Source: an uncultured Gammaproteobacteria bacterium | GTDB taxonomy: Bacteria > Cyanobacteriota > Vampirovibrionia > LMEP-6097 | Length of the DNA: 64,000 nt | Direction: 5' to 3' | NCBI GenBank assembly: GCA_964551135.1 | Contig: CAZKAT010000001.1 | Coordinates: 148,224-212,223, forward strand | Shown here: piece after piece, positions 1 to 54,268 of the stretch | Numbering within the stretch: the stretch's first letter is position 1 | Layout: the number at the start of each line of letters is the position of its first letter | The notes under the pieces: model-generated | The model's database searches: none | What the model was told of the DNA's origin: nothing | Seen by the model: only the letters and a program-made list of their open reading frames with translations | Position numbers and translations under genes: made by a program

Positions 1-807
1 GGAGCGAGTCTGGGTGGTATAGTGTCGTTTGTACTTCAATTAGCACCATTGGATTTTGTAAGAAAGAAATTACTTGGACATGATGCTAGTCCTCATACTC
101 AGTTACAAAAACAAGCAATAGAAGTTATAGAAGAGAAACAAGATGTGTTTAGCGGAGAATATAATCACATCTTAGTGCCGGCTTTATTCAGTACTGGTTT
201 ATCTCAGATCTTAGTTTTCATTGATGGCTTCTATTGTAAGGGACTTGAAGAGGGTTCGTTTACTGCTTTGACCTTGGCTAATCGTCTTATACAATTGCCC
301 CTAGGAGTGCTTCTTACAGCTTTCTTGGTGCCCTTATTCCCAAGGATTACTCAGCTAGTTAAAGACAATGATTTAACTGAAATTAAAAGATTACTGATTA
401 AAGCTATTAGAATGTTGATTCTACTTTGTATTCCAGCAATTATTGTCGGTATGCTTTGGCCTCATGAAATTATTCGTCTCTTATTTGAGCGTGGTGCTTT
501 TGATGAGAGATCTACTGCCATGGTTGCTGATTTATTCTTCTATCTCTGTCTCTCGATTATTCCTTATGTACTTAGAGATAGCTTTGCGCGTGCTTGTTAT
601 AGCTTCGGTGACGGCCAATCGCCTTTAGTGGTGATGATTGTTAGCATAGTTATGAAGTTTGCTTTGAACTCTTACTTTGTAGAACACTATGGATTAAATG
701 GTATAGCTATATCCACTACGATAATTAGTCTAATGAATGCCATAATACTATTCGTAATACTAAATAATAAGTTTAGAATTAATAAACTGGCTAAACAGCC
801 TGTATAA
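1..807 (+). CDS. murJ: Lipid II flippase MurJ/MviN, 5' truncated by the window edge
   Basis: Frame is open from base 1; motifs ANRLIQLPLG, LFERGAFD, RACYSFGD..P; multiple TM segments. Confidence 0.85.
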   Translation, partial: GASLGGIVSFVLQLAPLDFVRKKLLGHDASPHTQLQKQAIEVIEEKQDVFSGEYNHILVPALFSTGLSQILVFIDGFYCKGLEEGSFTALTLANRLIQLPLGVLLTAFLVPLFPRITQLVKDNDLTEIKRLLIKAIRMLILLCIPAIIVGMLWPHEIIRLLFERGAFDERSTAMVADLFFYLCLSIIPYVLRDSFARACYSFGDGQSPLVVMIVSIVMKFALNSYFVEHYGLNGIAISTTIISLMNAIILFVILNNKFRINKLAKQPV

Positions 808-815
808 TTAAACCG

Positions 816-1523
816 GTGATAAAACTCAAAAATACCACTAAAATTTATGGAAATATTCGCGCCTTAGACGGAGTTAACTTAGAAATAGGTGCAGGCGAAA
901 TGGTCATGTTAGTAGGTGCCAGTGGTGCTGGTAAGTCTACATTAATGAAGCTGCTTTATCGTGAAGAGAGACCGACTTCTGGTCAAATAATAATAGGTAA
1001 TATAGATGTCAGTTCTTTATCACATTCTAAGATTCCTTATTTAAGACGCAGAATGGGGATTGTATTTCAAGATTTTAAGCTATTACCTCATAAATCAGCT
1101 TTCGAGAATGTGGCTTACGCGCTTAGAGGTTTGGGCGCTGAAGAATATGAAATCCAGAAACGTGTCTCGGGAGCTTTGAAGTTAGTAGGTTTACTCGAGA
1201 GAGCTTTTAATTTACCAAGTGAACTTTCAGGTGGAGAACAGCAACGTGTGGGTATTGCAAGAGCTATAGTTCAAGGACCACCATTGGTGATAGCAGATGA
1301 ACCGACAGGTAATCTTGACCCTAACACGAGTTTGGAAATTTTTAAATTATTAGAGAGAGTCGCTGAGCGTGGTACTACAGTGCTAGTGAGTACGCACAAT
1401 CAACAGATAGTCAATCAATTTGGTAAGCGCGTTATCACCCTAGACAGAGGAAAGATCATAGCTGATACTGGACCGAGAGGTTTCATGAAGCCTGGTTCAG
1501 GTCAGAGTATTTTAAATAGATGA
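816..1523 (+). CDS. ftsE: Cell division ABC ATPase FtsE
   Basis: Walker A GASGAGKST, LSGGEQQRV, ADEPTGNLD, IVFQDFKLL; overlaps ftsX. Confidence 0.92.
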   Translation: MIKLKNTTKIYGNIRALDGVNLEIGAGEMVMLVGASGAGKSTLMKLLYREERPTSGQIIIGNIDVSSLSHSKIPYLRRRMGIVFQDFKLLPHKSAFENVAYALRGLGAEEYEIQKRVSGALKLVGLLERAFNLPSELSGGEQQRVGIARAIVQGPPLVIADEPTGNLDPNTSLEIFKLLERVAERGTTVLVSTHNQQIVNQFGKRVITLDRGKIIADTGPRGFMKPGSGQSILNR

Positions 1524-2395
1524 GAGAATTAAGAGTAATTTGGAGAACTTTATTAGAGGCTGTTAATAGTGTTAAGGCTGGTGGCGTCTCTAACTTCGTG
1601 GTAGTAAGCATTCTAGCTGTAGCATTAGCGCTATTTGGTGGAGTCTTGCAACTTAATTCAAGTATTAAGCAGATCTCTCAAAACTTAGATACTCAATTAG
1701 AGTTCTCAGTTTATTTGCTTGATAGTGTTACACCTAATGAAGTCGCTAGACAAATCAGTAATATTAAAGCAGTAGATAAGGTAGAAGTTATAACTAAAGA
1801 TGTCGCTTGGGAAAGATTCAGCAAGCAGTTTCAATTTAGTGAGATAGCTGGTAATCCATTGCCAAACACTCTCCATGTGAATATTAGAAGACCACAGGAT
1901 TTAGAAGATGTCATTGCTAGCGTGAAGAAGATCTCTGGTATAGAGCAGATCAGCTATGCACCAGAGCTATTTAATGGATTAGAGAGAATTAGATCTATAT
2001 TGTTTTCTTTTGGTGTTTTAATCACCTTGATACTTGCTATTGGTACTATCACTATAGTATCTAACACCATTCAGTTAGTGATTAAGAGTCGTTCACTTGA
2101 AATAGAGATTCTGAGACTAGTTGGAGTGGATGATTGGTATATTAGAGGACCATTTATATTTCACGGAATATTTTATGGGTTAGCATCAGCGTTCCTCGCT
2201 ATAGTGCCTCTATTAGTTTTACAGAACCTTGTCTGGAACTCATTTCAAAGCTCATTTAAAACTATAATGCCGGTAACTTTTAATTTTGATTCGGGTTCTG
2301 AGCTTGGTGTAATTTATATGATTATTACTCTCACTGGTGTTTTGGTTTGCGGACTTAGCGCATACTTCACTACAGAGAAGTTTATTAAAACTTAA
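1520..2395 (+). CDS. ftsX: Cell division permease FtsX
   Basis: NPLP motif, SNTIQLVI..R..EIEILRLVG, IRGPF; 4 TM segments; follows ftsE. Confidence 0.88.
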   Translation: MRELRVIWRTLLEAVNSVKAGGVSNFVVVSILAVALALFGGVLQLNSSIKQISQNLDTQLEFSVYLLDSVTPNEVARQISNIKAVDKVEVITKDVAWERFSKQFQFSEIAGNPLPNTLHVNIRRPQDLEDVIASVKKISGIEQISYAPELFNGLERIRSILFSFGVLITLILAIGTITIVSNTIQLVIKSRSLEIEILRLVGVDDWYIRGPFIFHGIFYGLASAFLAIVPLLVLQNLVWNSFQSSFKTIMPVTFNFDSGSELGVIYMIITLTGVLVCGLSAYFTTEKFIKT

Positions 2396-2529
2396 ATATC
2401 TACTACTTCTAGTCTAGGTAAAATACCTCGTCTAATAATCTCCATAATCCAGTTATATTAATTGTTACTTAACAACGGTACAGATAACCTAGCTTAGCTT
2501 CTATAGCTCTCGGGGATGATGACTATAAG

Positions 2530-3369
2530 ATGAAAGCCGTAATTCTAGCAGGTGGACTAGGTACCCGTATATCAGAAGAGACAGAGCTTAAGCCTAAGCC
2601 AATGGTAGAGATAGGCGGCCGGCCGATACTCTGGCATATCATGAAGATTTATTCTAATCATGGTATCAATGAATTTATTATTTGCGCTGGTTACAAAGGT
2701 TACATGATTAAAGAGTTCTTTGCGAACTACTTTATGCATAAATCAGATGTAACATTCGATTTAGCAAATAACAATCTTATTATTCACAATCATCAATGCG
2801 AGCCATGGAAAGTAACTGTAGTGGATACTGGTGAAGATAGCATGACTGGTGGTCGTCTCAAGAAAGTAGCTGCCTATGTTGGCAATGAAGATTTTTGCAT
2901 GACTTATGGTGACGGAGTTTCAGATGTAAATATTACTGAACTAATTAAGTTTCATAAAGCACAAGCTAAGTTAGCTACTCTGACAGCAGTCGCTCCTGCA
3001 GGCAGGTTTGGAGCATTAGAGCTCAGTGGTCATACTATTAATAGTTTCCATGAGAAACCGCAAGGAGATGGTGGCTATATTAATGGTGGATTTTTTGTGC
3101 TCAGTCCGCAAGTACTTAATTATATAGAACATGATCAGACTGTTTGGGAAAGAGAACCTCTTGAGATGCTAGCTAAACAAGGTCAACTGAGTGCCTTTAA
3201 GCATGAGGGATTCTGGCAACCTATGGATACTCTTAGAGACAAGCTTAAGCTTGAGGATATTTGTAAGGAAGGTAATCCACCTTGGTTAAAAAACACTTCA
3301 CGTCAAAAAACTAAAGCAATGTTTATTTCCAAGAATCCAATGGAGATGATTAAAAATAAAACAGTTTAA
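2530..3369 (+). CDS. rfbF: Glucose-1-phosphate cytidylyltransferase
   Basis: [40 protein letters not shown]. Confidence 0.93.
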
Positions 3370-3386
3370 TAAAAAGGGTCTATGTA

Positions 3387-4529
3387 ATGGTAATCAAAAG
3401 TTTTAAGGGTAAGAAAGTATTAGTCACAGGGCATACTGGTTTTAAAGGAACTTGGCTGAGTCTTTGGCTAGTAGAGCTGGGTGCACAAGTTGTAGGTTAC
3501 TCTCTAGAACCTAATTCTAATCCGTCATTATTCAAATCTATAGGTTTGGAAAGAGATATCAAACATTATATTGGTGATATTAGAAATTTTGAGAAGCTAA
3601 ATAAAGTTATTCAAGATGAGAAACCAGAAATAATTTTTCATTTGGCTGCACAAGCCTTAGTAAGAGAGTCTTACAAGAACCCACTTTTAACTTACGAGAC
3701 TAATGTTATGGGTACTGTGAATCTACTAGAAGCAGTACGTCATTGTGATTCAGTTAGAACTGTAATAAATGTTACAACTGATAAATGTTATGAGAATAAA
3801 GAATGGGTTTACGGTTATAGAGAGATAGATCCTCTTGGTGGTTATGATCCATATAGTTCTAGCAAGGCTGCTTCAGAATTGATTACAGCGTCTTACCGCA
3901 ATGCTTACTTTAATCCTAATGACTATGGTACTAAGCATCACGTTGCTCTAGCTTCAGCGCGAGCTGGTAATGTCATCGGTGGTGGTGATTGGGCTGAAGA
4001 TAGGTTAATCCCAGATGCTATTAAAGCTCTCAAGCTTAATCAAGAAATAAATATCCGCAATCCACATGCAACTAGACCTTGGCAACACGTGCTAGAACCG
4101 ATTTCAGGTTACTTGAGCTTAGCGTCTAAGCTTGAAGAAGATCCTAAAGCTTTCTCTGAAGCTTGGAACTTTGGTCCTAGAGAGACTGCTGCGATTAGTG
4201 TTGAAGAAGTAGTTTCTAAGATACTTAAGCTTTGGGGTAGAGGTAAGTATTCAGTAGATGCTGGCGAGCATCCTCACGAAACTAGCTATCTTAAGCTTGA
4301 CTTAAGCAAAACCTCTCAGAGACTTAAGTTCAAGCCGGTACTAGAGATAGATGAAGCATTACAGTTAACAGTACAATGGTATAAAAACTTCTATGAAGTG
4401 AAGACTACTAGTCCGAGAGAATTTACTATTAATCAGATTCGTGAATATCATAAGAAACGCTTTGGTATGTTGTCTAAGGCAATAGATAAGCTGGCTAGAA
4501 CTGTTGGGCAAGTGCAGACTGTAAGTTAG
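3387..4529 (+). CDS. rfbG: CDP-glucose 4,6-dehydratase
   Basis: VTGHTGFKG, TTDKCYEN, DPYSSSK, RAGNVIGGGDW, RPWQHVLEP. Confidence 0.93.
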   Translation: MVIKSFKGKKVLVTGHTGFKGTWLSLWLVELGAQVVGYSLEPNSNPSLFKSIGLERDIKHYIGDIRNFEKLNKVIQDEKPEIIFHLAAQALVRESYKNPLLTYETNVMGTVNLLEAVRHCDSVRTVINVTTDKCYENKEWVYGYREIDPLGGYDPYSSSKAASELITASYRNAYFNPNDYGTKHHVALASARAGNVIGGGDWAEDRLIPDAIKALKLNQEINIRNPHATRPWQHVLEPISGYLSLASKLEEDPKAFSEAWNFGPRETAAISVEEVVSKILKLWGRGKYSVDAGEHPHETSYLKLDLSKTSQRLKFKPVLEIDEALQLTVQWYKNFYEVKTTSPREFTINQIREYHKKRFGMLSKAIDKLARTVGQVQTVS

Positions 4530-4538
4530 TTAATATTT

Positions 4539-5114
4539 CTATCTAATTCTATCTAATGTAATAGTTGCTAGTTGAGGATTGCTGCCTATGAATTGACATA
4601 TATATAGCTCATTGACTTCAATAAATCCATCACCACTCTGGTCAGAGCAATCAGATACAATATCATAAATTCCAGCCCCTTGACCACTATAATTCTTTTT
4701 GGGATCGAGGTTTATAGTGTAATATTGAGATCCAGTGAAAAAGAAGTTTTGAAAGGATAAGACATTTTTTATTAGAATACCTAAGCTATGTCCAATAACG
4801 AAACCAGAGGAATCGCTTAATACAAACTCAATTAGCCCACTATCATTTTTAATTACGGCATCAATAATATCCAAAAATATTGGACTGGATTCGCTTGAAT
4901 CAATTAATCTATAAGTTCCTAATATATTTGTTGATGCTGTTTTGCCACCACCTTTGCGTGCGAGTTTGTCTTTCATGCTAGTTAATTCTTTGGCTTGCTC
5001 GTGGCTTGTAATTATTGGAGTGTTAGCTTGTTTTATATATTGTTTAGTTAGTGATGCATTTGCAAAGTTATTACTAATAAATATTAATGTTAAAACTAAA
5101 ACTACTAATCTCAT
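4539..5114 (-). CDS. Hypothetical exported protein with an EF-hand-like loop
   Basis: N-terminal signal peptide; DQSGDGFIEVNE loop. Confidence 0.6.
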   Translation of the reverse strand: MRLVVLVLTLIFISNNFANASLTKQYIKQANTPIITSHEQAKELTSMKDKLARKGGGKTASTNILGTYRLIDSSESSPIFLDIIDAVIKNDSGLIEFVLSDSSGFVIGHSLGILIKNVLSFQNFFFTGSQYYTINLDPKKNYSGQGAGIYDIVSDCSDQSGDGFIEVNELYICQFIGSNPQLATITLDRIR

Positions 5115-5612: not shown

Positions 5613-6461
5613 ATGGAAACACAGGTAATTACTAAGCTGCACGCGGATTTTGAGGATCATGCCCATATGCAAGATGGCGTTGAGTTCTGGTATGCAAGAG
5701 AACTTCAAGTCCTACTTGGTTATGATGAATGGAGGAATTTTGAGAAGATTATTGCTAAAGCTAAGCAAGCTTGTAAAGCCTCTAAGCAAGAGCTTTTCGA
5801 TCATTTTGTTGACGTCAACAAAATGATAAAACTGGCTAAGGGAGCGGAACGAACAGTATCAGACTACATGCTTACTCGTTATGCTTGCTACCTGATCGCT
5901 CAAAATGGTGATCCTCATAAGGAAGAAATAGCCTTCGCAATGACTTACTTTGCAGTGCAAACGCGCAAGCAAGAAGTCTTAGAACAGCGTATTAAAGAAT
6001 GGGAGCGTTTACAAGCTAGAGAGAAGCTATCTTTATCGGAGAAAGAACTTTCGGGACTTGTATTTGAACGTGGAGTAGATGGACAAGGATTCGCGAGAAT
6101 TCGTAGTAAGGGTGATGAAGCGCTTTTTGGTGGGCACGATACTCAAGCAATGAAAGAGAAGCTTAATGTTCCCGTGAAGAGATCACTTGCAGATTTTTTA
6201 CCGACAGTCACTATCAAGGCAAAAGATCTTGCTAATGAGATTACTAATTTTAATGTCAAGAAAAATAAATCATTAGAAGGTGAGACATTGATAAGTTCTG
6301 AACATGTTAAGAATAATCAGCATATGCGTGAGATGCTTGGTAAGAGTGGGATACAACCTGAAACACTTCCAGCTGCAGAAGATATTCAGAAGCTTGGAAG
6401 AAAGCTTAAGTCCCAAGACAAGAAGCTTCTTCAAGGATCTAAAAAACTATCAAGCAACTGA
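5613..6461 (+). CDS. dinD: DNA damage-inducible protein D
   Basis: [55 protein letters not shown]. Confidence 0.88.
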
Positions 6462-48496: not shown

Positions 48497-49410
48497 TGTT
48501 ATACTATGTTAAATCTGTGCCTAGTACCAAACCTAATCCTTTTAAAATAGACAGAGGAGCGCTTCCTAAGCTTCCAAAGTGGTTGCGTAATCACAAACCT
48601 AAATATCATTTTAATGAACTGATTAAAAAAATGCCACTTGATGGCATGACTACTGTTTGTCAGGAAGCTAAATGTCCGAATCGTGGTGAGTGCATTTCAC
48701 GTGGCATTGTTACGGTGATGATTTTGGGATCTCAGTGTACTCGTGCTTGCACTTTCTGTGCAGTGGGTAGAGATGAGCCAGCTCCTGTAGATACTGAAGA
48801 GCCGCAGAAGATGCTCGATATGGTTAATTATATGGGTGCTAAATATGTGGTAGTTACCTCTCCTACTCGTGATGATTTATTCGATGGTGGCGCAGCGCAT
48901 TTTAGGCAGGTGACTGAGTTTGTGCGTGAGCGCAGACCTGATGTTAAGCTCGAACTTTTAATACCAGATTTTCAGAATCAGGATTTTGCTTTCGATGAGA
49001 TCATTGCAGCACAGCCAGATATGCTTTGTTTTGATATTCAGACTGTGCGTTCATGCTATCACTATGTGCGTCCAGGATTTAGTTATGATAAGGGCTTGAG
49101 TTTGTTTAGATATTTTAGAGATCATTCTGATCTTAAACTTAAGACGGGTATCATGGTTGGTTTGGGTGAGACTCAAGCAGAGATGCTGGAATTATTTCAG
49201 GACCTCTATGACTCTGGTGTGCGCTATGTCACTGTAGGACAGTATTTGCAGCCTCCAGGTATGCAGCTACCAGTGCTTGAATATGTAGTGCCTGAAGTTT
49301 ATGAATTCTATACTAAAGAAGCAGAGAAGATTGGTCTATGGATCCAAGCAGGACCTTTGGTGAGAAGTAGCTATATGGCAGATAGATTGGCGATTCAAGG
49401 AGAAGAGTAA
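48496..49410 (+). CDS. lipA: Lipoyl synthase
   Basis: CQEAKCPNRGEC, CTRACTFC, GQYLQP, RSSY; start uncertain. Confidence 0.93.
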   Translation: MLYYVKSVPSTKPNPFKIDRGALPKLPKWLRNHKPKYHFNELIKKMPLDGMTTVCQEAKCPNRGECISRGIVTVMILGSQCTRACTFCAVGRDEPAPVDTEEPQKMLDMVNYMGAKYVVVTSPTRDDLFDGGAAHFRQVTEFVRERRPDVKLELLIPDFQNQDFAFDEIIAAQPDMLCFDIQTVRSCYHYVRPGFSYDKGLSLFRYFRDHSDLKLKTGIMVGLGETQAEMLELFQDLYDSGVRYVTVGQYLQPPGMQLPVLEYVVPEVYEFYTKEAEKIGLWIQAGPLVRSSYMADRLAIQGEE

Positions 49411-50069
49411 TGCTTGTCAAAGATTCCGTGCAATGTGATGCAGAACACATGGTGCGTGATACAACACTCTTTCAGGAATTTGATTTAAGTTCAGAAAGCA
49501 AACCGATATTTTTTTTCTATACTTGGAATGCTCCAGCACTTACTATTGGTAAAATTCAAAGAAATAGAGAGCAGCTTATTAAAGAAGCAGAAGCTTTGGG
49601 ACTGCCTTGCTATTTGCGTCCTACGGGAGGACGTGCTGTACTTCATGGTGGTGATATTTGTTACACCTTTATTGGTGCTCAAAGTGATACAGAGTTTGGT
49701 GGTAAATTACAAGAGTCGTTTCGTAAAGTAAATGAGATGGTGATAAGTTTGGTAAATGAAATTTTTAATCTTGAAATTGAAGCATCAGCGCTCAATACAA
49801 ATGAGTTAGCTAATGCTTTGAAAATATTTAATTGTTTTTCTACTCATGTTTCTAATGAGGGTCTTTTTCATGGACATAAGATTGTTGGTGCTGCGCAAGC
49901 GATGGGCTCTAGAAGTTTTATTCAGCAAGGTTCTATTCAGCTAAATAAAGTTGATGTTGATTTGAAATATTTTCAGTCTTATAAAACCTTAGGTGAACTT
50001 ATCCAAGAAAAATATATTCTTAGTGAATTATCTAGTATTTTAAATGAAAGGCAATCTAATATTATCTAA
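49410..50069 (+). CDS. Lipoate-protein ligase family protein, LipM-like octanoyltransferase
   Basis: YTW..PALTIG, RPTGGRAVLH, CF, KIVGAAQ, QQGSI; no C-terminal LplA domain. Confidence 0.8.
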   Translation: MLVKDSVQCDAEHMVRDTTLFQEFDLSSESKPIFFFYTWNAPALTIGKIQRNREQLIKEAEALGLPCYLRPTGGRAVLHGGDICYTFIGAQSDTEFGGKLQESFRKVNEMVISLVNEIFNLEIEASALNTNELANALKIFNCFSTHVSNEGLFHGHKIVGAAQAMGSRSFIQQGSIQLNKVDVDLKYFQSYKTLGELIQEKYILSELSSILNERQSNII

Positions 50070-50236: not shown

Positions 50237-51325
50237 TTGCAAACTGCTCTAGTTCAAGCAGTACCGGTGCATAATATGGATTCTCAATCTAGGCCCCCAT
50301 TGCTGCCTAGTATTAATTTTCCACGTTTGGAAAATTCTAGTTCTGAGCCTCAGAATATTATTCCAGAAACTAATCATATTAATTTTCATAAACCTGACGA
50401 ATCTCTTAAAAATGAGTCTGGCTTTCTTAAATCAATAACAGAAAATATTTGGATTAAGAGTCACATTCCTGAAGCTGTTAATGTTCTATCTATTGTTAGT
50501 AATGGAACTGCAGCAGCAGCTAATATGTTTGGCTTCTCTAATTCTGTAAAAGATTTTGCTAATAGTTTTGGGAAGGTTGGAGCTAAGATTTTTCTTATTA
50601 TTAATGGTGCAATTAATGCTATTGAATATTTTAGTAAGGGTAACTTTCTCGGTGCATTAGGACATTTCAATGACATCATTGTTGGTTCTACTGTACCTCA
50701 TGATCACATTTATCTGGATAGAGGAACGGCTTCAGGTACTTATACTCTAGCTAACTCATTAGCCATCATTAATAATAAGGATAAATTCAGTTCATTCTCT
50801 GACCATTTACAACATATTGCAGATGGTTTTAAGAAGAGTTATAACAACTTCTTTAGCAAGGACTTTTTAAAAAACCTTGCTAATGCTAACAATGCTATGT
50901 TTGGTGTCGCGTCAGGTATATTTTGTAACCTTGGTGTACTTACTTGGTTCCTGACTGGTAACGAGAAATTAGGTACTGTTATAAGAGACTTTGGTGGAAT
51001 TTTAATGGATATAGAACAAGCCCATCCAGGACACTTGCAGATGGGACGCAAATATTATTTCATGTCAGGACTGGGTTTACTCGGTGGTACTGTTTCAGAT
51101 TTCTTAGCGAAGATGCTTCCTTATTATAAGAAAGCATTTGTGCCTTTAAGTCTCTGTATTGATGGTATTGGTAGATATTTACTTAGAATTTCTCATAACA
51201 GAAATGAGCTGCCATCTAAAGAAAACCGTACTGAAACTCCTAAACCAGAAATTAGATTGGCTAGTAATATGAATCTCCCAAGCTCAAGATCTCAAGCTGC
51301 AGCTTTAGCTACTCAGGTAGCTTAA
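50237..51325 (+). CDS. Hypothetical membrane protein, paralog of 8273-9373
   Basis: AAGGAGG SD and TTG start; disordered N-terminus; collinear shared motifs. Confidence 0.7.
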   Translation: MQTALVQAVPVHNMDSQSRPPLLPSINFPRLENSSSEPQNIIPETNHINFHKPDESLKNESGFLKSITENIWIKSHIPEAVNVLSIVSNGTAAAANMFGFSNSVKDFANSFGKVGAKIFLIINGAINAIEYFSKGNFLGALGHFNDIIVGSTVPHDHIYLDRGTASGTYTLANSLAIINNKDKFSSFSDHLQHIADGFKKSYNNFFSKDFLKNLANANNAMFGVASGIFCNLGVLTWFLTGNEKLGTVIRDFGGILMDIEQAHPGHLQMGRKYYFMSGLGLLGGTVSDFLAKMLPYYKKAFVPLSLCIDGIGRYLLRISHNRNELPSKENRTETPKPEIRLASNMNLPSSRSQAAALATQVA

Positions 51326-51342: not shown

Positions 51343-52647
51343 GTGCTTAAGTTGGATGATAAACCCATAATTATTATTGGCGGCGGCCCTGGTGGTTACT
51401 CCGCTGCCTTAGAAATCAGAAAAAGATTTTTAGAACAAAAAATTATTCTTATAGAAAAAAACAAACTTGGCGGTGCTTGCTTGCATGTTGGTTGCATCCC
51501 AAGTAAACAATTACACTCTATAGAAAATCTAGAAGATTTCTCTAAATTAATCACTAAGAATAAAATGATCTTAGAGAAAGGGATTGCAAGTGAGTTGAAA
51601 GCAGCAAATATAGAACTTATATTTGATGAAGCGATCCTACCTGCAAAGTCCCATCTGCTGCGTTATGCGAGCCCCTCGCCATCCTCATTGACGACTCAGT
51701 CAACTCCGGTGTCTCGGGACTCGCAAGCCTTGCATCTGGGAGCTTTTCAGGCAGGATCAGAATTAGAAGGAGATAAGATTATACTTAGTAATGGTACTGA
51801 GTTAGAGTATTGTCATTTGGTAATAGCTACTGGCTCTAAACCCCGCACTCTGAAAGAGTTTCCGCAAGCTTTAACTAGTGATAGCTTTTTCTCTGATGAG
51901 AATTTAACTAAAGGATTTGCTGATAAGTATTGTTTCATTGGTGGCGGTTATATTGGTATAGAACTAGCATCTATGCTTGTGCAGCATGGCAAGCAAGTGC
52001 GAATTATAGAAGTCCAGGATAATATATTATCCTTTTTGGATAAGGACATTCATTCCAAACTTTTACAATCACTTAAATCTCAAAAAATAAAAATTGAAAC
52101 TGGTGTGAAAGATTTAAGTAGCATCATCTTAGAAGAAGGCGAAGAAGTTTTTGTTTCTGTAGGACGTGAACCTATTACTACAGCCACCCAGCCACCCAGC
52201 CACTCAGTCACTTATATTGGTGATGCCTCACAAGGAATAGCTCTTGCTCATTATGCCTATGCGCAGGCAAAACAGCTTGCTGCTAAGCTTGCTGGTGAAG
52301 AATATGTAATTGATAAAACCAAAGTGCCTCTGGTAATTTTTACTCATCCAGAACTTGCGACTATTGGTTTAACTGAAGCGCAGGCAAGAGAGAAATATGG
52401 TGATGCTATCGAAACTAAAATTATTAACTGGGCTAGCAATGGTAAAGCGCGTGTCTCTGGTGCTGATCGGGGTATGACTAAATGGGTTATTTATAACGAT
52501 AAAGTTATAGGCTGTCATGTTATTGGTGAACATGCTACTGATTTGATCTCTATTGTGGTTCCGATTATTAATATGAATCCTTCTATTAGTAAAATGCAAA
52601 CCTGGATATATCCACATCCGACCCTAGGTGAGGTTTTTGCGTTATAA
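51343..52647 (+). CDS. lpdA: Compact dihydrolipoamide dehydrogenase carrying two repeat-derived segments
   Basis: GGGPGGY, GGACLHVGCIPSK, ATGSKP, GGGYIG.E, HPTLGE. Confidence 0.88.
   Translation: MLKLDDKPIIIIGGGPGGYSAALEIRKRFLEQKIILIEKNKLGGACLHVGCIPSKQLHSIENLEDFSKLITKNKMILEKGIASELKAANIELIFDEAILPAKSHLLRYASPSPSSLTTQSTPVSRDSQALHLGAFQAGSELEGDKIILSNGTELEYCHLVIATGSKPRTLKEFPQALTSDSFFSDENLTKGFADKYCFIGGGYIGIELASMLVQHGKQVRIIEVQDNILSFLDKDIHSKLLQSLKSQKIKIETGVKDLSSIILEEGEEVFVSVGREPITTATQPPSHSVTYIGDASQGIALAHYAYAQAKQLAAKLAGEEYVIDKTKVPLVIFTHPELATIGLTEAQAREKYGDAIETKIINWASNGKARVSGADRGMTKWVIYNDKVIGCHVIGEHATDLISIVVPIINMNPSISKMQTWIYPHPTLGEVFAL
51633..51758. mobile_element. 126-bp palindromic element inserted in frame in lpdA
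   Basis: Imperfect terminal IRs GATCCTACCTGCAAAG/CTTTTCAGGCAGGATC; removing it restores FDEAELEGDK. Confidence 0.85.
52181..52212 (+). repeat. Four octamers (CAGCCACC x2, CAGCCACT, CAGTCACT) inside lpdA
   Basis: Same unit as the arms at 32.8 and 46.8 kb; read as TATQPPSHSVT. Confidence 0.75.
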
Positions 52648-52655
52648 TAAGCTTA

Positions 52656-53765
52656 ATGCCTGATCTTAAACAACCTATCTCTCATAGTTTCAACCTCGCT
52701 AATAATGCACGATTTGCAGATTTTGGTGGTTGGCAAATGCCGACGTTTTATTCAAGTATTACTGAAGAGCATACAGCTTGTCGTCAGCATATAGGTTTAT
52801 TTGATGTGTCGCATATGGGGCGTTGGTGGGTAACAGGTCCTAATGCACAATTGTTTTTGAATCATATTATTACCAATGATCTTTCTGCTTTAGCTACTGG
52901 ACGAGGTCTATATGCTGCGATGCTTAATGAACATGGTGGGATTATTGATGACTTGATAATTTATAAAATTAGTTCTGAGAAGTTTCTATTAGTGGATAAT
53001 GCAGGTAACCATGCTACTGATAGTGTTTGGTATCGTAAACAAGCTTCTAAGTTTGATGTAACATTGGAGGATATTACTTCTAGTTGGGGACAAATTGCAA
53101 TTCAGGGACCGGATGCTAAAGCTGCTACTGAAAAGCTTCTGGGAATTGAAACTACAATTAAATATTTTAGTTTCCAAGAAGTTCAGTATAAAGGACAAGG
53201 TCTAGTCATAGCTGCTACAGGTTATACTGGTGAGCAAGGTTATGAGTTGTATGGACCACCATCTTTATTGATGCAAATTTGGCAGCAACTTATCGATACA
53301 GAAAACGCTAAGCCTTGTGGTTTAGGTTCTAGAGATCTATTAAGACTTGAGGCTGGTTACTGCTTACATGGTAATGATATAAATCAAGAAACTACGCCTT
53401 ATGAAGCTGGTTTAGATTGGGTTACTAAATTAGAGAATCATGATTTTATTGGTAAAGCAAATGTCACAAGAAAGAATAAAAAATTAGTTGGATTAGCATT
53501 TCCTATAGGAGAGAAGCTTATTCCTAGATCACATACTATTGTTATAGATATAAATGGTAAGCCTATTGGTGAAATCACAAGTGGTAATTTCTCGCAAATG
53601 CTTAACAGAGCTATTGCTCTTGCTTATATTGATCCTAGTTATACTCAAGATTCAGCTAATATAGAAATACGCGGAAAAAAAGCCTTTGCAATCATTGGTG
53701 AAGCTTGGTTCTATAGAAATATCAGAGCTAAGGAAGTCCAAGAATTTAAAATTAAAGTAGCATAG
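52656..53765 (+). CDS. gcvT: Glycine cleavage T protein
   Basis: FGGWQMP, LFDVSHMG, TGYTGEQGYE, GLGSRDLLRLEAG..LHG. Confidence 0.94.
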   Translation: MPDLKQPISHSFNLANNARFADFGGWQMPTFYSSITEEHTACRQHIGLFDVSHMGRWWVTGPNAQLFLNHIITNDLSALATGRGLYAAMLNEHGGIIDDLIIYKISSEKFLLVDNAGNHATDSVWYRKQASKFDVTLEDITSSWGQIAIQGPDAKAATEKLLGIETTIKYFSFQEVQYKGQGLVIAATGYTGEQGYELYGPPSLLMQIWQQLIDTENAKPCGLGSRDLLRLEAGYCLHGNDINQETTPYEAGLDWVTKLENHDFIGKANVTRKNKKLVGLAFPIGEKLIPRSHTIVIDINGKPIGEITSGNFSQMLNRAIALAYIDPSYTQDSANIEIRGKKAFAIIGEAWFYRNIRAKEVQEFKIKVA

Positions 53766-53884: not shown

Positions 53885-54268
53885 ATGATTAAAATAGCTT
53901 TTATGGTTCAGTATTTTAAAACACACGAATGGATAGAAGATATCGGTGGCGGTAAATTTCATATGGGCATCAGCAAGTATGCTTGCGATCAACTTGGTGA
54001 CATAGTTTTTATCGAAGAGAAAGATGCTGGTGAACTTTTTGATGAAGGTGATTCACTTGCCATACTTGAATCAGTGAAAGCTGTTGGTGATGTCTATGCA
54101 CCGTTTAAGGCTAAGCTTATACGCACTAATCCTGATCTAGTAAGTAGACCAGAAGACCTTCAGTCAGATACTTGGATAGTAGAGATTAAGTCTATCGATG
54201 GTATTAACTTTGACGATATGGATACTCTCAACTCTAGTGAGTATGATGATTTTATAGCGACGCTGTAA
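53885..54268 (+). CDS. gcvH: Glycine cleavage H protein
   Basis: THEW, GIS.YA.DQLGDIVF, lipoyl site ESVKA. Confidence 0.92.
   Translation: MIKIAFMVQYFKTHEWIEDIGGGKFHMGISKYACDQLGDIVFIEEKDAGELFDEGDSLAILESVKAVGDVYAPFKAKLIRTNPDLVSRPEDLQSDTWIVEIKSIDGINFDDMDTLNSSEYDDFIATL

Follow-up and report, generated by a model that had tools for sequence, protein, structure and literature searches.

An in-frame 126-nt hairpin repeat in the lpdA gene of a Melainabacteria-like lineage

A palindromic element of 42 codons within lpdA

The 64,000-nt stretch of DNA analyzed here (hereafter the window) carries a cluster of lipoate and glycine-cleavage genes, among them an lpdA gene for a dihydrolipoamide dehydrogenase whose coding sequence harbors a 126-nt palindromic element (Table 1). 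A preliminary description of the stretch had reported this element as a GC-richer palindrome placed precisely in frame, exactly 42 codons long, bounded by imperfect inverted repeats and centered on a TTGAC-N6-GTCAA hairpin, and we could reproduce all of these properties, including the coordinates. The GC content reaches 0.575 (calculated over 120 nt) versus about 0.30-0.38 in the flanks, the inverted repeats correspond to the 16-nt termini, and the central hairpin is located at 51688-51703. The whole 126 nt fold into a single long imperfect hairpin of -54.8 kcal/mol (shuffle mean -35.0, z -5.58), and 0/200 shuffled sequences folded as well. The lpdA mRNA carries the strand that we call R, opposite to the F strand that serves as the reference for the repeat family described below, and reads it in the second phase (R phase 2) to give the peptide ILPAKSHLLRYASPSPSSLTTQSTPVSRDSQALHLGAFQAG. 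Peptides predicted from the insert would include SHLLR and YASPSPSSLTTQSTPVSR; Ser, Leu, Ala, and Pro are abundant, and the grand average of hydropathy is -0.19.

Pattern search, blastn, and nhmmer all failed to reveal a second copy within the window. Searches with the Rfam 15 covariance models returned nothing relevant for the element at E <= 10, no element-related match at gathering score over the whole window, and no family for the element over six copy-bearing loci (Geobacter and Syntrophales among them).

Table 1. Features of the lpdA locus and of the hairpin element (window coordinates).
Feature	Coordinates	Strand	Basis
hairpin repeat element, 126 nt	51633..51758	- (family F strand)	sequence, fold, GC, profile match E 1e-39 on minus strand
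left terminal inverted repeat GATCCTACCTGCAAAG	51633..51648	.	88% complementary to 51743-51758
box B, F strand CTCGCATAACGCAGCAGATGGGA	51649..51671	-	copy alignment; cross-phylum comparison
apical module, F strand GGAG-TTGAC-TGAGTC-GTCAA-TGAG	51684..51707	-	tip hairpin of element
box A, F strand CCAGATGCAAGGCTTGCGAG	51720..51739	-	pattern used in collection scan
right terminal inverted repeat CTTTTCAGGCAGGATC	51743..51758	.	partner of 51633-51648, 16 nt
lpdA-like dihydrolipoamide dehydrogenase, 434 aa (392 aa minus insert)	51343..52647	+	domains, invariant motifs, E3 structures
lipoate-protein ligase (LplA/B-type) gene	49410..50069	+	conserved context lipA-lplA-X-lpdA-gcvT-gcvH
gcvT	52656-53765	+	glycine-cleavage gene downstream of lpdA
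gcvH	53885-54268	+	glycine-cleavage gene downstream of lpdA

The element is a derived insertion

The closest LpdA homologues are mostly 388-395 aa long, which is the size of the window protein once the 42 residues are subtracted, and this segment is absent from all 22 orthologues that could be aligned (49-87% identity). Deletion of the element had been predicted to restore a plausible LpdA strand; the resulting FDEA-ELEGDKIILSNGTELEY indeed pairs gaplessly with FDQA-KLEDNKVTLSNGTELEY of the orthologue in locus L004 (FDEA ELEGDK versus FDQA KLEDNK across the junction), relative to which the net gain at this site is exactly 126 nt. At the DNA level, the alignment to the syntenic sister L002 (79-86% identity) stops at 51632 and restarts at 51797; the match of the element itself in L002 (85%) is to a separate copy lying directly upstream of obg.

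Near-identical lpdA genes are found in runs from public metagenomes of two studies (drinking water 2022; freshwater 2018). Zero-mismatch unitigs span both junctions at gene depth in runs X1, X2, and X6 (~31x, 42-48x, and 4-6x, respectively), and no unitig joint bypasses the element in any of the three. The insertion is thus genuine, and the populations sampled are fixed for it. De Bruijn unitigs do break inside the element, as they do at repeats, because it is a dispersed repeat (see below). This could recall a repeat-induced assembly chimera, or the segment could be a native, lineage-specific loop that merely resembles a palindrome. Given the intact junctions in three runs of two studies, the homology to dozens of copies elsewhere, and the absence from all orthologues, the likelihood that we assign to either is negligible.

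An intact enzyme with a predicted surface loop

The lpdA ORF (open reading frame) contains the domains Pyr_redox_2, Pyr_redox, and Pyr_redox_dim, and the nearest solved structures are dihydrolipoamide dehydrogenases (E3 enzymes; fold match TMq 0.77 to 1EBD, 2EQ6, and 4JDR). The motifs GGGPGG, CLHVGC, GGGYIG, and HPTLGE are invariant in the orthologue alignment, as are C46 and C51 of the CxxxxC redox disulphide and H425 and E430 of the C-terminal HxxxxE. The FAD, redox-disulphide, and NAD motifs are intact.

The preliminary description had suggested a structure model for placing the insert, and the AlphaFold2 model that we built from the orthologue alignment (mean predicted local distance difference test, pLDDT, 80.5) puts it in a loop of low confidence that joins two strands, the E3 fold being normal otherwise. 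The core outside the insert is confident and superposes on the solved enzymes, and residues 103-142 (pLDDT <50) form a coil between strands 91-98 and 145-148. The position of the loop is taken from the AlphaFold2 model because the sequence alignment to PDB entries omits residues 63-154. By comparison with the glutathione-reductase fold, the hairpin that bears the insert would belong to the solvent-exposed beta-meander of the FAD domain. The insert is most likely a floppy 42-residue loop at the surface of the protein.

A 42-residue insert in a Rossmann-type domain could of course disrupt the enzyme, in which case lpdA would be a pseudogene inactivated by the insertion, decaying but still open. 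The full-length ORF with every invariant motif, the intact lipA-lplA-lpdA-gcvT-gcvH context, the confident E3-like core of the model, and the retention of lpdA with comparable inserts in sister lineages make this highly improbable.

Family 1, a dispersed hairpin repeat

To delineate the repeat family (family 1), a collection with one genome per species was scanned with the box A pattern (CCAGATGCNAGGCNTGCGAG), which occurred in at least 107 stretches. A profile search of the listed loci gave 104 matches, from which we retained at least 48 unique, strong, full-length copies; all counts out of 48 or 18 given hereafter refer to copies among the matches listed. These copies reside mostly in eight sister metagenome-assembled genomes (MAGs) and in three others whose label is Candidatus Melainabacteria. 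In the metagenome runs, the summed depth over the element is 200-5000 versus 30-48 in the flanks, and element-matching contigs with other flanks number 49 in X1 and 134 in X2, which identifies the element as a dispersed repeat. The family, whose further copies had been foreseen in the preliminary description, has apparently not been described before.

Copies closely related to that of lpdA reside in other enzymes. When residues 96-140 of the window protein were compared to a global protein collection, a segment 95% and 90% identical was found in two acetyl-CoA synthetases (683 and 679 aa). The corresponding copy in the acs gene of L116 has 126 nt, about 95% DNA identity, and the same orientation and phase as in lpdA; its termini GAACC...GGTTC differ from GATCC...GGATC of the lpdA copy by a compensatory pair. 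A CDP-alcohol phosphatidyltransferase gene of L032 represents a second case read in R phase 2 and encodes ..HLLRYASSSESSLTEESTAALQNSQALHLEDF.., so that one peptide is common to lpdA, acs, and this gene. Searched against 1.84 billion representative proteins, a profile of the F-phase peptide gave 14 matches, a poor guide to copy number since the insert is often missing from the sequences chosen to represent clusters.

An exact 25-mer of the left arm matched only a truncated 32-nt copy at a contig end in the sister MAG L001. This remnant (5706-5737 of CAZFCF010000019.1) shares 32/32 nt with the left arm, and lies right behind a short-chain dehydrogenase gene's stop codon; the sequence beyond it is AT-rich and unrelated and ends in a partial terminal repeat.

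Copies within long ORFs keep the reading frame

Long ORFs read through 17-18 of the 48 listed copies. The genes concerned include those for FlgA, an HD-domain protein, a peptidase M3, a DUF3326 protein, a class I aminoacyl-tRNA synthetase, TrpE, riboflavin synthase, MetH, an FtsY/SRP54-type GTPase, a CobQ-type amidotransferase, a CDP-alcohol phosphatidyltransferase, and DapA. Fifteen copies are read in the F orientation and in one phase only (F phase 1), with the consensus ..EKLPDARHASxExxELTxTSMSSxRxEHNxADGTLRTGS. All translated copies are free of stop codons in the phase used, and their length is always a multiple of three nucleotides (18/18, versus 19/30 untranslated copies; p about 3e-4). 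Untranslated copies sit at gene ends, and none of the 48 splits a gene in the sense of being flanked on either side by coding sequence of one strand whose frame is closed or shifted. Such a pattern would arise if the survival of an insertion depended on its being translated, and we strongly infer that the insert is translated together with lpdA.

Could LpdA nevertheless be made without the 42 residues, the element being removed after transcription or translation in the manner of an intron, by translational bypass, or by protein splicing? The hairpin is very stable, and no RNA run contains the lpdA gene. Removal of the element would, however, abolish any need for open frames and for lengths divisible by three, yet both are what all in-gene copies display; moreover, the element matches no intron or other RNA family, and no match to inteins or further protein families was found for its peptides. 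We consider such a removal very unlikely.

The hairpin is maintained by compensatory changes

Across 45 aligned copies, RNAalifold predicts 36 base pairs, 20 of which keep pairing through two-sided changes. The pairs of the terminal inverted repeats covary across the family; the tip helix is conserved, with one pair covarying from GC to UA and an invariant closing G.U pair. The F strand forms the more stable hairpin in 45/45 copies (mean -59.8 versus -48.2 kcal/mol with RNA parameters), and also with DNA parameters, owing to fixed G.U pairs and asymmetric internal loops.

We also noted an orthologous in-frame insertion in one unnamed gene of two sister MAGs (L087 5012-5138 and L045 7533-7659). 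The two copies differ by two compensated pairs (G-C to A-T; T-A to C-G), and the hairpin has therefore been kept after insertion, either under selection or through conversion by other copies.

Such compensatory changes in coding copies raise the question of a co-option, in which the loop, or the hairpin in mRNA or DNA, would now serve lpdA, for instance in binding glycine-cleavage partners or by modulating translation rate or mRNA stability. The fixation of the insertion in populations of two studies would fit, as would the use of F phase 1 above the level given by the openness of the phases. On the other hand, the nearest orthologues function without the insert, the same peptide recurs in unrelated enzymes (acs, CDP-alcohol phosphatidyltransferase), the insert is predicted to be disordered, and the lpdA mRNA bears the weaker R strand. 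Co-option thus seems unlikely, if somewhat less so than the other alternatives to a plain insertion considered above.

A scenario for the insertion in lpdA

Taken as a whole, we consider it very probable that a non-autonomous hairpin repeat inserted in lpdA, is translated as a disordered loop, and belongs to a family filtered for frame by selection. A mobile family 1 repeat of ~126 nt would have entered lpdA in a Melainabacteria-like lineage after the split from its closest sampled relative, presumably by transposition. Its length of 42 codons and its stop-free R phase 2 would have left the gene intact, and the element would most likely be transcribed and translated with it, giving a Ser/Leu/Ala/Pro-rich, probably disordered loop of 42 residues in the turn that joins two beta-strands of the FAD-binding domain, where it may be selectively neutral. 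Insertions that close or shift a frame would be purged by selection, so that only in-frame copies with an open phase and copies at gene ends would remain.

Several observations weigh against this scenario or parts of it. Regarding mobility, no boundary definition gave target-site duplications clearly above shuffled pairings in the 45 copies, and no cognate transposase was found, the loci not having been screened for one; mobility is thus deduced from the distribution of the copies alone; likewise, evidence for further copies in the genome of the window itself is indirect, consisting of X1 contigs with equal depth and other flanks. Regarding neutrality, F phase 1 accounts for 15 of the 18 translated copies versus about 30% expected from the openness of untranslated copies (p about 4e-6), and pairs remain compensated even in coding copies; together, these two features suggest that more than plain neutrality may be at work. 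The excess of F phase 1 may stem from a better tolerance of the F peptide, which is hydrophilic and acidic, or from an orientation bias of insertion. Finally, regarding retention of the insert in mRNA and protein, none of the RNA-seq runs contains the lpdA gene.

The only pattern seen in the flanks of the 45 copies is a TAA bias 3' of the F strand. In addition, the stop codon of the upstream gene overlaps the first base of the element in many gene-end copies, namely those of L010, L037, L026, L067, L084, L061, and L057. Overlap and bias may reflect either a target preference or the capture of stop codons.

Repeated insertion in lpdA of the clade

The window copy is not the only one in lpdA. 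The orthologue P0005 (L004 8393-8519) carries an insert of ~45 aa at a different site, between ENL and KYCFIGGGY, which is clearly homologous to the window element when the latter is read as its reverse complement; the arms of the two show compensatory differences. At this other site, L004 and L115 (99.4% identical to L062 and located in a Ca. Melainabacteria MAG) both carry family 1 copies, of two sub-types, in the orientation opposite to that of the window copy. The copies at the site of L004 and L115 are independent of the insertion in the window, and lpdA appears to have served as a landing site more than once in this clade.

A second, shorter repeat family also lies in frame in lpdA of two other lineages (L002 10319-10396, protein P0002; L006 10301-10384, protein P0018), in or adjoining the beta-hairpin that holds the window element. 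This CGTC-containing family has the sequence GCCACGTCG...CTCGC[G/A]ATGAC, encodes the peptides ..SPRRSFAAPRDD.. and ..TSPSAPRND.., and has short matches in L053, L057, L062, and L115. Moreover, in the lpdA orthologues P0024 and P0033, three other positions bear inserts of 13-30 residues that are specific to their lineages.

Comparison with known palindromic repeats

The preliminary description had likened the element to the Rickettsia palindromic elements (RPEs; RPE-1 and related), which, as summarized from Ogata et al. (2000) in PMC10969869, measure ~150 bp, encode a conserved peptide, and are often found in frame in metabolic genes. The likeness holds for behavior: both are dispersed palindromes of ~100-150 bp in small AT-rich genomes, both encode a conserved peptide, and both occur frequently in frame in unrelated housekeeping genes that stay intact, at sites compatible with the fold. 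It does not extend to homology, of which there is none at the peptide level, since the six encoded peptides had no match in NCBIfam or Pfam even at E <= 10. NCBIfam presumably contains the TIGRFAM RPE1-type models. Family 1 further differs from RPEs in its host, Melainabacteria-like here versus Alphaproteobacteria, in being translated in two orientations (F phase 1 and R phase 2), and in an asymmetric conserved core that is also found in hairpins of other phyla. With a host from another phylum and no match among curated peptide families, membership among RPEs is unsupported, and family 1 is best viewed, on comparison at the peptide level, as an RPE analogue rather than an RPE.

The claim of an unrelated phylum was borne out, on the basis of source labels only: Cyanobacteriota, Vampirovibrionia, or Candidatus Melainabacteria are the labels borne by the lpdA relatives and by the MAGs with the element. 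Eight MAGs with the syntenic lpdA cluster, family 1, and about 34-39% GC are nevertheless titled 'uncultured Gammaproteobacteria bacterium isolate SRP150892_/SRP302895_...' (L001, L008-L010, L015, L022-L024, others). As their named relatives are Melainabacteria, Vampirovibrionia, or Cyanobacteriota, this title is probably a placeholder or an error.

[quoted passage not shown] MITEs are small, non-coding, and multicopy, and ORFs are at times lengthened or interrupted by them in frame. Like them, family 1 has terminal inverted repeats, a small size, and no coding capacity for a transposase. In contrast to MITEs, family 1 has no detectable target-site duplication, consists of one long hairpin rather than terminal inverted repeats around an unrelated core, and has a far higher share of translated copies, about one third.

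A further comparison is with extragenic palindromes of the REP/BIME type (repetitive extragenic palindromes; bacterial interspersed mosaic elements). REPs measure 20-40 nt and are located outside genes, and those tagged by CGTC or GTAG are mobilized by RAYT transposases. Family 1 resembles them in its covarying arms, its preferred strand, and its many copies at gene ends directly after stop codons. Yet, it measures ~126 nt, is often intragenic, and ends in AGAGCC...GGCTCT or GATCC...GGATC without a terminal GTAG or CGTC tag; length and intragenic copies rule out an assignment to REPs. No RAYT gene was found either, though no search was aimed at one.

Related hairpins in other phyla

Weaker full-length matches of ~125-130 nt were found in genomes labelled Geobacter, Geobacteraceae, Smithellaceae, Syntrophales, Desulfobacteria, Gemmatimonadetes, and Thermoanaerobaculaceae. 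These wider relatives share box A, which the scan required, and box B (GAGCGYAACGC.GCAGATGG); the latter was no requirement of the scan, yet it hardly varies between copies or between phyla. Arms and tips differ. Box A (CCAGATGCAAGGC[T/G]TGCGAG) pairs with box B (GAGCG[T/C]AACGC.GCAGATGG) via a symmetric GA/GA internal loop. Such hairpins occur, among others, in L073, L016, L018, L072, L055, and L031, and several loci of wider relatives contain extra copies without the scanned pattern. In Geobacter sp. OR-1 (L044), two hairpins of the Geobacter type lie in tandem (5676-5783 and 5807-5909) directly upstream of the transfer-messenger RNA gene (5924-6276, RF00023), and a third copy is found at 2254-2357.

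Tentatively, family 1 could belong as a branch to a superfamily of ~125-130-nt hairpins that spans phyla, with a nearly invariant, asymmetric core and with outer arms and tips that covary freely or differ. This core would be bound by a conserved protein that spreads horizontally and acts on one single strand (F-strand RNA or single-stranded DNA), and the hairpin would be under selection even within coding sequence; we deem this possible but doubtful. If so, translated copies would be peptide and structured nucleic-acid signal at once.

The tip resembles that of the 'predicted short RNA elements' Gmet_R1001-1024 of Geobacter metallireducens (GGCGTAGC...GCTACGCC; PMC2700814, supplement 4). As candidate relatives these were rejected, a profile of the Geobacter type (nhmmer) giving no match to them at E <= 10.

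Implications

In-frame palindromic repeats in essential genes have so far been treated as a peculiarity of Rickettsia. Here, the same behavior is seen at a comparable or higher rate in an unrelated, uncultured lineage of Cyanobacteriota/Melainabacteria with small genomes, in which lpdA was struck independently several times by two repeat families. This supports the idea that such insertions are a general outcome of hairpin repeats in compact AT-rich genomes. The copies also offer natural experiments on which protein loops tolerate inserts of 40 residues, and the conserved, strand-asymmetric core provides a handle for finding the machinery by which the repeats spread. In practice, gene callers and orthology pipelines will produce enzymes of odd length from such genes, and short-read assemblies will break at the elements.

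Neighboring genes

The lpdA gene encodes the L-protein/E3 of the lipoate and glycine-cleavage cluster, since its neighbors are gcvT, gcvH, and an lplA-like gene, and since the gene order lipA-lplA-X-lpdA-gcvT-gcvH is found again in relatives. In the window, an ORF of 362 aa without a Pfam match (50237-51325, plus strand) separates lplA from lpdA; L002 has an unannotated 389-aa ORF of similar size at the same position, and L006 has none. The LpdA proteins of the clade are unusually short, with ~390 aa once inserts are subtracted versus 455-480 aa for the solved E3 enzymes.

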